DNA of 30,076 nucleotides from a virus, in UHGV virus genome UHGV-1385480; one strand, 5' to 3'. Made by a program: the position numbers and the translations under genes. Below are positions 5,816-10,011 of the stretch, in pieces (position 1 is the stretch's first letter; every line of letters begins with the position of its first letter). The notes beneath the pieces were generated by a model. That model did not search any database, was not told the DNA's origin, and worked only from the letters and a program-made list of their open reading frames with translations.

Positions 5816-8800
5816 TTAAGAAACAGTAATACCCGTAGTGGCTTTTTTAGTTACCATTACAGTTAAATCACTGATCCATGTGCTAGGCGTCCAGTTGTTG
5901 ATTGCGCTTGATTGCACTTCAAAGGTCAAGGTCACAGCACCTTTACCCGCTGGCATATCAATAACACCTGAGTAAAGACCAGTATTACCGCCATACGCCC
6001 TATTATACAACTCTGACCCATTCTTACGAACAATCAGGCGACAGGTGTCGTAATAGGTATTATTGTTCGACCCTTCACGCGCTCGCAATCCACCAAAACT
6101 AATCGCCGGAATAACGATTTGACGATCGAACTTGTGATCATCTTCAACGCGAACGGTTACTGTACCTTGCGGATAGCCGCCATAACCATTATCAACGTTA
6201 ACATCACGGTGTGGGAACTTACGACCAATCACCTTAACGAAATCACCCTTAACCTGAGTAGCTTCAAGCATACCCTTAATAACACAGCTAGAGTTAATCG
6301 TGACGTTGTTCAGAGTACCAGAATCAGCCGTGATATTACCTTTAACGGTAGCGTTCATGAACGTAGCGGACCCGTTCTTGTTGATATGCCATCCGGTTGA
6401 TCCGTTCCAGTTGGAAGACTGGATATAGTTACCAATTTTGGCGTTATCAATTGCACCGTTTACGATCTTGGCGTTAGTGATTGCCCCGTCCTGAATCTTC
6501 GCGCTGTTAATTGCGGCATTGCCGATCTTGGCAGTAGTAATCGCCGCATCATTAATCTGGGCTGTACCAATTGCAGCATTACGAATCATCGCATTATCGA
6601 GATAAACCTTGTTACCTTCGATACCAAACGGACATACCCCCGATCCATTCTGTGGAGCTACCGCGATTTTATCAGCCGTAAAGATGATTCTTGTCGGTTC
6701 TGCCGGATCATTGGTTGCGCTCATATGAATACCAGCCACGCGACCATCTGCATTAACCGCCAGATTGTATTTGCTGTTAATGGTTCCTTTCAAAGCATCG
6801 ATTTTTACATCTGCTTCCTGATTCACACCAGCAATCTTGCCATCCATTTCTACCCGAACTTGATCAATCTTACTTGCGCTTGCTGCCTCACTGGTTGCAA
6901 TTGCTTGTTTCAGGGTTGTAGCGGAGGCGCTAACTTCTTTGGTGATATCGCCTTTCAGTTCAGCTTTAACCTGATCAATCTTAGTTGAACTTGCCTTATC
7001 ACCAGAAGCAATCAGACTCTTTAAGGTATCGGCTGAGGCTTGAACAGTTTTACCCGTCTCGGTAGTGATTTGCTTATGCATTGCATCAATTTTAGCATCG
7101 GCATTAGCGCCAGCTTGCTTAATAGCATCCGCGATAGTTTCATCTAAGCGATCTTGTAAACCGATCAGGTCTTCCAGTGCTTCTTTGTCCTGATCGTCCC
7201 AACTAATCGTAGACTTCATTTGCATGAAATACGGTTCAGACCAAACAGCATCATCCATACCGAAAATATCGTAGTGAGCACCACGGATATAATAATCACC
7301 GTCAGCAATATCAAAGGAAGTATGGCTAACACTATTCGTACTTACTGCCCTTGCATCTGAGAAAGTGTTGTCGGTTGCATACTGGATGATTGACCCTGCA
7401 TAGTCATGTTCTACGTCATCCGCCCAGCTAACAAACGCAGTATTAAAGCCACCACGCGCACTAAAACCTTTCATTGGCTTATGTTGTGGGTTGATAGCCA
7501 CTAAACGCGCTGGGGCGCTCTCTGAGTTGTTATAGCCCTTAGCTGATACTTCTACCGTAAGTTGACGCGAAAGGCCGTTAAACTGGTTCATATCAAGCGT
7601 ATAAGTCCATGATTCAGGATCGCGGGTACGGTACTGAATAGACTTACCAGCCTTGTTAGTCACCTTGATAATGTATGCTTCAAACAGGTCACTAAACTTG
7701 TTAGTTTCACCGTTGATCTCAACATCTAATTGTTGCTGATTTTCCCATTCGATAATCAGATCATTACCTTCGAAAGTTCCTGGCGTGCTACCCTGATTTT
7801 TGATTCGAATAACCGGAGTCGGCAATTCATAGGTAACAGTAGGATTCTGGTTAATCAGTTCTACCCAATCGGATCTCGCGATGATACCGAAAGCACAAAC
7901 TCGGTAATCGTAGGAACGATCTTTTGCCAGTGCATTGACACTGAAAATTTGCTGTGAAGTCTGTCCCAACTTAATCCAGTTAGGTGATCCGCTTACACGG
8001 TAATCAATCTGGAAGCCGTAGCGGTTAAAATCTTCTGGTGCATCCCATGTCAAAGTAACGTTTTTACCGTAAATCGTCTCGCCAGTTGCCTTAATTCTGA
8101 AATTAGTAGGCTTCTGTACTGTCATTGAATCCGGTAAACCACTTGGTCGGTTATCTGGGTTAGCCGCATAGTTCAGGTCAGTATAAACCTGAGAATTATA
8201 TTCTGTAGCGGTGATAGTCATCATCCCAGCAATACCAGAATCAATCGAGCGATCAATTGCAGTAATACGCCATAAGGAATTATTCAGCTTCAATTCATCA
8301 TAGGTTACGCTGATAACGTCCCAAACTTCGGCAGTGAATGCGTCAGTAGTCATAAAGCTGATAACCTGAGTGATACGAGATTTATTTCGCTCAATACTCG
8401 CAAGTTTATCAATCTGGGCTTTAGACTTAACAAAACGATATTCAATATCTTTAGCGATAATTCGACCATCTTGACGAATAGTAGCATCGTTTTCAGCATC
8501 AGCCGGATAACGTAGCATTTGCTCTGAATAGTCGATTGATGGTTCTTGATACATCGCGTTAATGGTATTGAAATAACCGTTAGTGCCACCTGTTTTCAGT
8601 GATACCTTACCCATCATGATATTGTCTTCATTGAAGGTATGCTTAACAATATCAGGAGCATCCAGTTTCAGCGTAATACGTCCAAAGGATTCGAACATCA
8701 CCCCGCCGAAAGTCTGCATAAGGCTAGTCAAGTTCTCTTTAAAGCTGGCGTTCGGATCACATGCACCGTTTGAATGCAAATCCATCTGGCGTACTTGCTT

Positions 8801-9592
8801 ACGTACTTTCAGGAATGAATCAACGTTGATGTTTTCAATTGGTACACTAAGACCATATTTTGTATTTGTCAGATAATGGAAAATCTGGTCCACGCCGTTA
8901 GTGCTAGCCTCAATAGCATTGGTTTCAAGGTTACGAATCTTTAACCCGCAAACGTCTACCGCTACCTGGCTATTTGGTTGGAGAATATCAACACCAGCAG
9001 CAAGAGATTTGTCATCACGACGCAACACAATACACATGGTCGCAATACCATTGCCTTTGTAGTTGTCGTTCCAGTCTGACCCTAAGTGACGTTTTGCCAG
9101 TGACAAAGCGGTGTTAGGATTCTTACCAGTGCGGAACTCAACCTCTAAAACTTTCCGGTATTCTTCTTTAATGTTGCCTTTGTCCAGTACACCATCACGG
9201 ATCGTCATGTTCTTACCAACAAGAACATTTTTGTTATCGATGAATAGTGCTTTGTAATGGTCGATTTCACCCTCTGCAATTGCGAAGATTTGCACTAACT
9301 TATTGTTTTCTTGCTTAGAAATTGCTTTGTAAACGCAGATTGCACCCGTGCGGGTAGTACCGAAAAGAACGGGTAATACTGTCTTCGGATCGTTTGATGT
9401 TCCTAGTGTCACCGCATTATCTGGGCTTTGTACTTTCGGTGTTTTTGGTGCGCCTACAGTGGAAGCGATCAAGGTCATTGCACCAGCAGCCATACCGATA
9501 GCGACTGCGGTCATAACAGAAAATGTTGCAGCAGCAGCCATCCCAGCAGACGCACCAGCAATAACCGCGCCTACCAATATTTCAAATCCCAT
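5816..9592 (-). CDS. central tail fibre / host specificity protein (lambda gpJ-like) with an N-terminal gpI-like segment fused in frame
   Basis: C-terminus (HKFDRQIVIPA ... MPAGKGAVTLTF ... VMVTKK) resembles the recalled lambda gpJ C-terminus (HPFDRQIVVLP ... MPAGRGNVILTF ... VMVIKK); N-terminal ~90 aa (Gly/Ala-rich hydrophobic stretch, KTVLPVLFGTTRTG) resembles the recalled C-terminal part of lambda gpI; ATG overlaps the upstream stop (TAATG). Confidence 0.85.
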   Translation of the reverse strand: MGFEILVGAVIAGASAGMAAAATFSVMTAVAIGMAAGAMTLIASTVGAPKTPKVQSPDNAVTLGTSNDPKTVLPVLFGTTRTGAICVYKAISKQENNKLVQIFAIAEGEIDHYKALFIDNKNVLVGKNMTIRDGVLDKGNIKEEYRKVLEVEFRTGKNPNTALSLAKRHLGSDWNDNYKGNGIATMCIVLRRDDKSLAAGVDILQPNSQVAVDVCGLKIRNLETNAIEASTNGVDQIFHYLTNTKYGLSVPIENINVDSFLKVRKQVRQMDLHSNGACDPNASFKENLTSLMQTFGGVMFESFGRITLKLDAPDIVKHTFNEDNIMMGKVSLKTGGTNGYFNTINAMYQEPSIDYSEQMLRYPADAENDATIRQDGRIIAKDIEYRFVKSKAQIDKLASIERNKSRITQVISFMTTDAFTAEVWDVISVTYDELKLNNSLWRITAIDRSIDSGIAGMMTITATEYNSQVYTDLNYAANPDNRPSGLPDSMTVQKPTNFRIKATGETIYGKNVTLTWDAPEDFNRYGFQIDYRVSGSPNWIKLGQTSQQIFSVNALAKDRSYDYRVCAFGIIARSDWVELINQNPTVTYELPTPVIRIKNQGSTPGTFEGNDLIIEWENQQQLDVEINGETNKFSDLFEAYIIKVTNKAGKSIQYRTRDPESWTYTLDMNQFNGLSRQLTVEVSAKGYNNSESAPARLVAINPQHKPMKGFSARGGFNTAFVSWADDVEHDYAGSIIQYATDNTFSDARAVSTNSVSHTSFDIADGDYYIRGAHYDIFGMDDAVWSEPYFMQMKSTISWDDQDKEALEDLIGLQDRLDETIADAIKQAGANADAKIDAMHKQITTETGKTVQASADTLKSLIASGDKASSTKIDQVKAELKGDITKEVSASATTLKQAIATSEAASASKIDQVRVEMDGKIAGVNQEADVKIDALKGTINSKYNLAVNADGRVAGIHMSATNDPAEPTRIIFTADKIAVAPQNGSGVCPFGIEGNKVYLDNAMIRNAAIGTAQINDAAITTAKIGNAAINSAKIQDGAITNAKIVNGAIDNAKIGNYIQSSNWNGSTGWHINKNGSATFMNATVKGNITADSGTLNNVTINSSCVIKGMLEATQVKGDFVKVIGRKFPHRDVNVDNGYGGYPQGTVTVRVEDDHKFDRQIVIPAISFGGLRAREGSNNNTYYDTCRLIVRKNGSELYNRAYGGNTGLYSGVIDMPAGKGAVTLTFEVQSSAINNWTPSTWISDLTVMVTKKATTGITVS
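6425..6600 (-). repeat. tandem ~21-nt (heptapeptide) repeats inside the central fibre gene
   Basis: Protein AIGTAQINDAAITTAKIGNAAINSAKIQDGAITNAKIVNGAIDNAKIG; the DNA shows the matching periodic att-gc...atctt units. Confidence 0.5.
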
Positions 9593-10011
9593 TATTCACC
9601 CCCGAATCTATAAACTTGTTCATAGTCAATGTCTGAAACAGGAATGGTCATCCAGATACCATCTTCTTCAACGAGGCCATAACCGGAATAATGAGGAACT
9701 ACGGAATAATAATTACGGTTTCCTAATTTGTGGGCTGTGACCAGTAAGTCGCCGTCCTGTAAATCATCAGTGACTAATTTGAAATGTTTCTTAATTGGTT
9801 GAAGGATGTTTGAATATCCGCTTAATTCTTTGCAGATTTTCAAGCCTTCTTCTTTAGTTGAATATTTTTTATAAAGAGAATTATATAGGTCAGTACCAGC
9901 GAGAATATCGATGATCTTACATGCAATGAGATTGCAATCATTCTCGCCTTGAACGAACTCCTGACCTATTAAAGAATTGATGTAATCGGTGATAAGCCTA
10001 GTTTTTAGCAT
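9592..10011 (-). CDS. minor tail protein, NlpC/P60-like (gpK-like C-terminal domain only)
   Basis: Candidate catalytic Cys in ENDCNLIACK and downstream His residues; position between the L-like and I-J genes; start chosen at ATG 10011 (GGAGGT SD 7 nt upstream) rather than the track start 10167, which has no SD and overlaps the upstream gene. Confidence 0.45.
   Translation of the reverse strand: MLKTRLITDYINSLIGQEFVQGENDCNLIACKIIDILAGTDLYNSLYKKYSTKEEGLKICKELSGYSNILQPIKKHFKLVTDDLQDGDLLVTAHKLGNRNYYSVVPHYSGYGLVEEDGIWMTIPVSDIDYEQVYRFGGE

Follow-up and report, generated by a model that had tools for sequence, protein, structure and literature searches.

The tail-tip genes of a viral DNA of 30,076 nucleotides (nt), UHGV virus genome UHGV-1385480 (hereafter the window, meaning this whole stretch), very probably form the distal tail-tip module of a siphophage-type E. 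coli prophage, with a hub architecture of the type known from phage T5 and from the Rhodobacter gene transfer agent (RcGTA), and with a tip protein that carries its own plug in cis. The first 95 or so residues of this tip protein resemble the part of lambda gpI that plugs the lambda tail, and they continue without interruption into a large hub and fibre protein. An initial annotation of the same DNA had read the region as the lambda M-L-K-I-J set, fused and reduced; this framing was not supported by our comparisons, since the upstream genes belong to other families and the equivalent of the presumed I-J junction is contiguous in T5 pb3.

Gene layout of the tail-tip module

All coordinates are positions in the window, and the tail-tip genes are all on the minus strand. 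The genes of the module, the tape measure gene directly upstream, and the segments of the tip protein (lengths in amino acids, aa) are the following:

11322..13754 (-), tape measure protein, 810 aa, the gene next before the tip module (match to phrog_13674, a family of tail length tape measure proteins, E 2.4e-64)
10711..11271 (-), distal tail protein (Dit), 186 aa (phrog_1302, E 2.6e-16); initially labelled "M-like"
10058..10711 (-), N-terminal piece of the hub, 217 aa (attachment domain of baseplate hubs, DUF2163); initially labelled "L-like"
9592..10011 (-), DUF6950 protein, 139 aa (PF22262, E 3.3e-12), with a predicted divergent NlpC/P60-like (papain-like) fold
5816..9592 (-), tip protein, 1258 aa, a single uninterrupted open reading frame (ORF)
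9452..9592 (-), tip residues 1-47, uncharged Gly/Ala-rich hydrophobic segment (hydropathy; profile alignment to gpI from residue 118)
9305..9451 (-), tip residues 48-96, strand region resembling the C-terminal part of gpI (TAPI-C), "PKTPKVQSPD...TVLPVLFGTTRTGA" (BLASTP, hhalign, PDB-wide profile search)
8153..9304 (-), tip residues 97-480, putative hub domains equivalent to HDII-HDIV (relation to T5 pb3, the gpJ N-terminus and the megatron; weak matches)
5816..8152 (-), tip residues 481-1258, FN3/Ig-like repeats, tail-tip fibre segment and lambda-J-type C-terminal receptor-binding domain (Pfam, BLASTP, PDB)

Reading of the DNA gave the TAATG overlaps that had been described at two junctions: at 10711, between the 186-aa and the 217-aa genes (GTATAATGGCA; GTA-TAA/ATG-GCA), and at 9592, between the 139-aa and the 1258-aa genes (GAATAATGGGA; GAA-TAA/ATG-GGA), stop and start share one nucleotide. 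Translational coupling of the overlapping genes is a reasonable inference from these overlaps, and the DUF6950 gene is probably coupled in this way to the tip gene. A spacer of 46 nt lies between the 217-aa and the 139-aa genes, and a GGAGG is found 8 nt before the ATG of the latter (10011). A longer ORF for the K-like protein, starting at 10167 (191 aa), was considered and rejected: it overlaps the hub gene, its extension has no homologues, the relatives measure 139-148 aa, and PGAP calls the 139-aa form. In related E. coli chromosomes the PGAP coding sequences of both the 139-aa and the 1258-aa proteins are identical to the window ORFs.

The tip protein N-terminus resembles the lambda plug

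Residues 1-47 of the tip protein include 1 charged residue, 30% Ala and 15% Gly, and have Kyte-Doolittle means (19 residues) of 1.4-1.8; in composition they resemble gpI 98-156. The residues that follow can be aligned with gpI directly, tip residues 48-107 matching gpI 156-223 in BLASTP with 35% identity (pairwise E 4e-7). We built a profile of the N-terminal family from 8 sequences, the window protein and 7 relatives from an exhaustive phmmer search. Compared with gpI by hhalign, this profile gave a probability of 94.8% and an E of 5.5e-8, with residues 49-96 aligned to gpI 159-212; searched with hmmsearch against all 177,635 PDB sequences, it found lambda gpI (8iyk_I) as its best match (E 4.4e-6), profile positions 12-96 corresponding to gpI 118-212. 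The similarity is beyond chance and indicates homology between tip residues 12-96 and the C-terminal part of lambda gpI, which resides in the virion and was named TAPI-C by Iyer, Burroughs and Aravind (2006). The earlier proposal that the first ~90 residues correspond to the hydrophobic C-terminal part of gpI is thus borne out by BLASTP, by hhalign and by the profile search that had been suggested as a check, with a homologous region of ~95 residues. The Pfam family Lambda_tail_I had no match at the tip N-terminus; this null is uninformative for tip residues 1-96, because the model spans only gpI 14-97, the ubiquitin-like (Ubl) domain.

The second PDB match of the profile was T5 pb3 (profile 71-124 to pb3 262-315, E 2.1e-5). 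It contains the "(V/I)PVVYG...AEGEIDGF" stretch, which is contiguous in T5 pb3. The motif in pb3 lies directly after the plug, which has the tip of its hairpin at residues 233-236 (PMC10038345).

In lambda, residues 134/135-223 of gpI form a trimeric plug within the virion, which beta-augments gpJ and supports the C-terminal coiled coil of gpH (PMC10721106, PMC12617516). A different reading would make the hydrophobic stretch of the window protein a mere membrane anchor or signal-like precursor segment, removed during assembly and without any role as a plug. Its 47 residues are indeed strongly hydrophobic and uncharged, and just part of gpI is visible in the lambda virion (PMC10721106, PMC12617516). 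However, the visible part is the homologous one: it is resolved in the lambda tip from 134/135 onwards, including the hydrophobic residues 137-152 inside the tip (PMC10721106). The N-terminal helices of the megatrons of RcGTA and R4C are likewise seen, forming an iris that closes the channel, and have been proposed to enter the outer membrane (PMC7296036, PMC10276861). The segment is also conserved: the exhaustive phmmer search with residues 1-100 returned six matches with E <1e-9 (five of them proteins of 1192-1351 aa), all aligning from residues 4-6 of the matched protein, and every relative of the tip protein keeps the hydrophobic N-terminal segment. On this evidence we regard a discarded anchor as highly improbable.

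A probable hub body and a lambda-type C-terminus in one chain

Beyond the plug-like region, hhalign aligned tip residues 97-128 with gpJ 22-57. This match is weak (E 0.07) and begins exactly where the gpI alignment ends; because of this, the tip protein can be read as collinear with the C-terminal part of gpI followed by gpJ. The continuity of the I-like part with a J-like body had been noted before, and it holds: the gene is one uninterrupted ORF, with hub sequence similar to gpJ and T5 pb3 collinear from about residue 97. Neither a stop codon nor a frameshift, which had been named as what could separate the two parts, was found between them in the window, in 54 E. coli genomes covering at least 80% of the module, in Escherichia phage DCP80 or in more distant relatives.

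Further along the chain, Phage-tail_3 matched residues 285-447 below its cut-off (E 7e-4; 19.9 bits, cut-off 23) and fn3 matched residues 508-570 weakly (Pfam), followed by Phage_Tail_Tip (PF09327, residues 931-1028, E 1.7e-19) and Ig_GpJ_C (PF12421, residues 1124-1258, E 7.6e-34). The NF049904 model gave an E of 1.9e-60 in a partial match, far under its cut-off of 1950 bits. In BLASTP the protein was 31% identical to lambda gpJ 872-1131 over 315 aligned positions, clear similarity to gpJ being confined to the C-terminal ~310 residues, and among PDB sequences the C-terminus matched A8 gpJ best (E 1.4e-53) and lambda gpJ with E 3e-34. The tip protein thus appears to combine, as a mosaic, a hub of the T5/GTA kind with a receptor-binding fibre of the lambdoid kind.

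The upstream genes are not those of lambda

The two proteins initially labelled M-like and L-like could not be assigned to the corresponding lambda families. The 186-aa protein belongs to phrog_1302; in Pfam it had no match to Phage_min_tail, the gpM family, and a weak match to the DTP-pb9 B-domain (E 0.0012), a family of T5 pb9. The 217-aa protein, for which PF09931/DUF2163 (Phage_phiJL001_Gp84_N) is the relevant family, matched phrog_2048 (tail protein, E 7.7e-28) and had no match to Phage_tail_L, the gpL family; the names given to it by PGAP are "DUF2163 domain-containing" and "baseplate hub domain-containing protein", and a PDB sequence search with it gave nothing meaningful. As a control, a comparable scan of lambda gpM and gpL recovered their own Pfam families, at 1e-39 and 1e-101.

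We also searched for the two domains that accompany the plug in lambda. In Pfam, neither the tip proteins nor 20 other ORFs spanning the window (29 window proteins scanned) matched JAB/MPN, ThiS/MoaD or Lambda_tail_I, and an HxH motif is absent from the four tip proteins, in agreement with the earlier remark that no MPN-like HxH motif or ubiquitin-like domain is apparent nearby. The intergenic space, consisting of the 46-nt spacer between the hub and K-like genes and the 1-nt overlap between the K-like and J-like genes, leaves no room for a further gene.

These results bear on whether the region derives from a lambda-type M-L-K-I-J cluster in which I became fused to J after loss of the Ubl domain and K was cut to its NlpC/P60 half by loss of the JAB domain. 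Such a history would fit the finding that the best solved match of the N-terminal segment is lambda gpI and that the C-terminal receptor-binding region is lambda-J-like; it would also fit the TAPI-TAPJ fusions and NlpC-only TAPK variants that Iyer et al. (2006) recorded in prophages and regarded as possibly degenerate. However, Dit, the hub piece and the K-like protein belong to families other than gpM, gpL and gpK, the intergenic distances hold no remnant of a Ubl or JAB domain, the junction motif is contiguous in T5 pb3, and the same compact module is found in distantly related lytic phages infecting Vibrio, Providencia and Pseudomonas. We therefore consider derivation from a lambda cluster quite improbable.

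The 139-aa protein belongs to the DUF6950 family

The protein encoded immediately upstream of the tip gene is a member of Pfam DUF6950 (PF22262; 47.1 bits against a cut-off of 27, residues 7-127 on profile positions 10-127 of 134) and also matches phrog_2134, with relatives in E. coli, Salmonella and Providencia prophages. Our literature search for DUF6950 found no paper. The structure prediction that had been proposed for 9592-10011 was run with AlphaFold2 (AF2) on 18 sequences and gave a confident model (predicted local distance difference test, pLDDT, 86; predicted template modelling score, pTM, 0.81), in which an invariant Cys26 starts a helix (26-38) that is followed by a five-to-six-stranded sheet. 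Foldseek placed NlpC/P60 endopeptidases at the top of the PDB matches of this model (MepS, 4xcm of T. thermophilus, 3i86 (MAP1204 P60) and LytE), with probability 0.85-0.99, template modelling (TM) scores of 0.5-0.57 and E from 0.02; lower rows were partial matches to papain-like deubiquitinases. In BFVD the highest-ranking matches were phage proteins of the DUF6950 family, with TM up to 0.76, and proteins carrying the name NlpC/P60 came next. A predicted NlpC/P60-like fold is thus supported for this protein.

Sequence comparison with gpK gave far less. BLASTP between the 139-aa protein and gpK found no similarity, Pfam gave no Prok-JAB match at E<=1, and PDB sequence searches with DUF6950 profiles returned nothing meaningful. 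The only matches that bridge the families, that of gpK to DUF6950 (E 0.067) and that of the Providencia phage PSTCR4 DUF6950 protein to NLPC_P60 (E 0.0053), were both sub-threshold. Since only the G..DC region could be aligned when DUF6950 profiles were compared with lambda gpK by hhalign (E 0.04-0.12), homology of DUF6950 with gpK would rest on the fold and not on the sequence. The initial annotation had described the protein as keeping only the NlpC/P60-like part of gpK: the AF2 model and Foldseek agree with a papain-like, NlpC/P60-like fold, but a truncated gpK is not supported, the protein being a member of a separate family.

Conservation within DUF6950 was compared over the window gene (9592-10011, minus strand) and the loci L063 4531-4947, L064 4486-4947 and L034 2670-3086. 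The residues invariant across the family are G22, D25, C26, Y50, G87 and D88, forming the motifs G..DC and GD. The Vibrio, Providencia and Pseudomonas members share in addition a C-terminal P-x-C-x-Q-Q motif, which the E. coli branch does not have.

Comparison with known tail tips

The arrangement in the window is an ordinary one, a plug at the front of a large tip protein being already known from T5 and from RcGTA. The closest parallel in gene order is found in RcGTA (g12-g13-g14-g15) and R4C (gp13-gp16), where Dit, hub and a 150-aa peptidase are followed by a megatron with an N-terminal hydrophobic iris/penetration domain (PMC7296036, PMC10276861). As in the window, a papain-like protein of ~140-150 aa precedes a large plug-bearing protein, the hub is split between a short PF09931/DUF2163 protein and a protein of >1200 aa that starts hydrophobic, and there is no Ubl or JAB domain. 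Unlike in the window, the small protein is there a canonical NLPC_P60 and not a DUF6950 protein, the hub has 4Fe-4S cysteines, which the shorter window hub (217 aa) does not have, and the C-terminus carries a fibre-binding domain, whereas the window protein ends in a lambda-J-type receptor-binding fibre.

T5 pb3 shares with the window protein the combination of plug and hub domains in one chain and the motif directly after the plug, and GTA hub and megatron have been reported by Linares et al. to align very well with pb3 (PMC10038345). It differs in having hdI to hdIV in one polypeptide, with no papain-like gene interrupting; in the window the hub attachment domain is encoded by the separate 217-aa gene, with the DUF6950 gene between hub and tip genes. 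Fibre and receptor-binding functions reside in pb4 and pb5 in T5, unlike in the window. In lambda, as in the window, the gene for a papain-like protein precedes the plug-coding sequence; gpI 118-212 is homologous to tip 12-96, and the C-terminal fibre/receptor-binding domain of gpJ is homologous as well (31% identity). Unlike lambda, the window has neither Ubl nor JAB domain, carries the plug in cis with J, and has Dit and hub families unrelated or remote to gpM and gpL in their place. Xiao et al. have proposed that gpL, gpI and the gpJ N-terminus together are the counterpart of pb3 (PMC10721106). Siphophage DUF6950 proteins (Acinetobacter phage Loki, Providencia phage PSTCR4, Vibrio phage 83AMN) have the same size as that of the window and are encoded directly upstream of a plug-bearing J-like gene.

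From these comparisons, the 139-aa DUF6950 protein corresponds in position to lambda gpK and to RcGTA g14, and tip residues 1-47 correspond to gpI ~98-156 and to the iris/penetration segment of the RcGTA megatron. Given the contiguous motif in T5 pb3 and the same gene order in RcGTA and R4C, the plug in cis is a normal and probably older state, and the separate, Ubl-tagged gpI of lambda the special case.

Several observations weigh against a T5/RcGTA-type assignment of the module or limit its detail. Homologue searches with tip 1-130 and 1-480 gave only fragments and close relatives, and with this shallow alignment the AF2 model of tip 1-480 was poor (pLDDT 43, residues 1-85 unmodelled). The best fold matches of this weak model in Foldseek were T5 pb3 and the DT57C hub (E 6e-6 to 1e-4), with the RcGTA chain 6tba_8A at E 0.019; because of the quality of the model, the T5-like fold matches (TM about 0.25), and with them the plug conformation, are weak evidence. 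PDB searches gave no sequence match to the megatron or hub chains of RcGTA and R4C. The PF09931 match of the 217-aa protein is marginal (E 8.1e-6; 26.5 bits, cut-off 26). This hub piece is shorter than gpL and than the RcGTA/R4C hubs, and since it has just two cysteines where four are needed (Cys12 and Cys160, neither conserved in DCP80), its sequence leaves it unable to hold the 4Fe-4S cluster that is present in gpL and in the hubs of RcGTA and R4C. As to the DUF6950 protein, Pfam gave no NLPC_P60 match at E<=1, and the canonical catalytic His of NlpC/P60, located where the strand after the GD-strand begins, is absent across the family, the gpK alignment placing Tyr/Asn at this position. A His94 upstream of the canonical position is conserved only in the E. 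coli/Salmonella/DCP80 branch; the PSTCR4 and Lebethron proteins have no His in the region, and none is conserved family-wide. A peptidase role is consequently unproven and the chemistry of the protein uncertain, because the canonical His is absent.

Possible roles of the DUF6950 protein

We take the most likely role of the DUF6950 protein to be in assembly of the tail tip, as for gpK and g14, with a possible second role as a cell-wall peptidase; loss of RcGTA g14 yields tail-less heads (PMC7296036, PMC10276861). The protein could instead be mainly a peptidoglycan peptidase carried in the virion and ejected, as has been proposed for RcGTA g14, which degrades peptidoglycan and has been tentatively placed in the tail lumen (PMC7296036). 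An NlpC/P60-like fold with an invariant Cys at a helix N-terminus would suit this role, and the tape measure protein of the window has no recognisable lytic domain. However, the canonical catalytic His is missing, with no alternative His in its stead throughout the family, and the second positional counterpart, lambda gpK, is not detected in virions (PMC10721106, PMC12617516). We judge the ejected peptidase to be a serious alternative, though an unlikely one.

A further idea arises from gene order. The plug may be a free protein, as gpI is in lambda, or may be in cis, as in the window prophage, in RcGTA and in the phages of Vibrio, Providencia and Pseudomonas; in every case the gene directly before the plug-coding sequence encodes a papain-like protein of the K type. 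K-type proteins (gpK, g14, DUF6950) might thus act on, or chaperone, the Gly/Ala-rich plug during tip assembly and not act on peptidoglycan, a suggestion that we consider rather improbable.

Occurrence of the module

The module was present in 57 of 5426 complete E. coli genomes (about 1%), at 80-99% identity and always in the chromosome. In E. coli VTB96775v (13159-16513) the prophage that carries it interrupts ycdX beside the curli (csg) operon. The window element encodes a large serine recombinase (1581-3275, plus strand). IMG/VR contained about 30 near-identical copies of ~35 kb, and scans with the DUF6950 alignment gave almost only near-identical E. coli prophages.

A megablast search with the module against 50,697 phage records gave no match. 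The closest phage, found by tblastn only, was Escherichia phage DCP80, which is 42% identical in the tip N-terminus and carries the same arrangement of Dit, hub, DUF6950 and plug joined to J. The DCP80 record (PQ671644) is filed under Straboviridae/Tevenvirinae, yet has a siphophage module of tape measure protein, Dit, hub, DUF6950 and J at 7143-8915, with the Dit (7143-7703) and DUF6950 (8499-8915) genes unannotated in GenBank. Three further phages, 83AMN of Vibrio, PSTCR4 of Providencia and Lebethron of Pseudomonas, have the DUF6950 gene immediately before a J-like gene, the product of which opens with a hydrophobic stretch rich in Gly and Ala, together with a "...YG" motif. The tblastn matches of the tip proteins of Vibrio, Providencia, Pseudomonas and Pelagibacter phages begin at query residues 25-38 and therefore include the plug.

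Proposed working of the tail tip

Three tip proteins and three hub pieces would assemble beneath the Dit hexamer, with strands 48-96 packing on the hub domains as gpI does on gpJ. The three copies of segment 1-47 would then close the tail lumen below the C-terminus of the tape measure protein, as the lambda, T5 and RcGTA structures lead us to infer. Binding of a receptor by the J-type C-terminus would open the cone and free the hydrophobic segments, which may insert into the outer membrane. Because the plug would be delivered in cis, a Ubl carrier and a JAB peptidase would not be needed, consistent with the proposal of Iyer et al. that the JAB domain processes the Ubl of gpI.

Other features of the window

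Just downstream of the tip gene, a 92-aa protein (5433-5711, minus strand) begins with a hydrophobic helix, also contains a coiled coil and matches phrog_12015 (unknown function); an M15 endolysin lies beyond it, at 3810-4163. On the other side of the tape measure gene, a tail assembly chaperone (TAC_13 / phrog_344; 14138-14446, minus strand) is followed by a short ORF (13863-14108, minus strand) with a weak Phage_tail_T match, and from their sequences the two are a probable frameshift pair of the G/G-T type. A gp38-like adhesin (Gp38_N, 4e-15) and a T4-type fibre gene flank the lambda-like tail tube gene (loci 14489-14995 and 15170-15643, both on the minus strand). The T4-type long-tail-fibre protein (15700-19230, minus strand; 1176 aa) matched Gp34_trimer at 1e-36, the intramolecular chaperone Peptidase_S74 at 8e-14 and phrog_1699 at 1e-144; fibre and adhesin together are side-fibre hardware of myophage style within a siphophage tail operon. 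The window also encodes a fusion of protease and capsid protein, an ORF of 670 aa (21041-23053, minus strand) with Peptidase_S78 at residues 40-162 and Phage_capsid (HK97-type) at residues 414-666.

Implications for siphophage tail tips

These results leave the current picture of siphophage tail tips unchanged. They are of use for annotation, since the PGAP names found in such prophages can be read in terms of function: "DUF6950 family protein" as a factor like K or g14, "DUF2163 domain-containing protein" as a piece of the hub, and "phage tail tip domain-containing protein" as the plug-bearing hub/fibre protein. The module offers a natural case of a plug of the lambda gpI kind without ubiquitin-like domain or JAB peptidase, and supports the idea that the Ubl/JAB pair is an addition of lambdoid and T1 phages for delivery of the plug in trans. 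It is also a simpler system in which to ask about gpK-like proteins; if K-type proteins do act on the plug, this system, with its plug in cis and free of Ubl and JAB, would be the minimal form for testing what they do.

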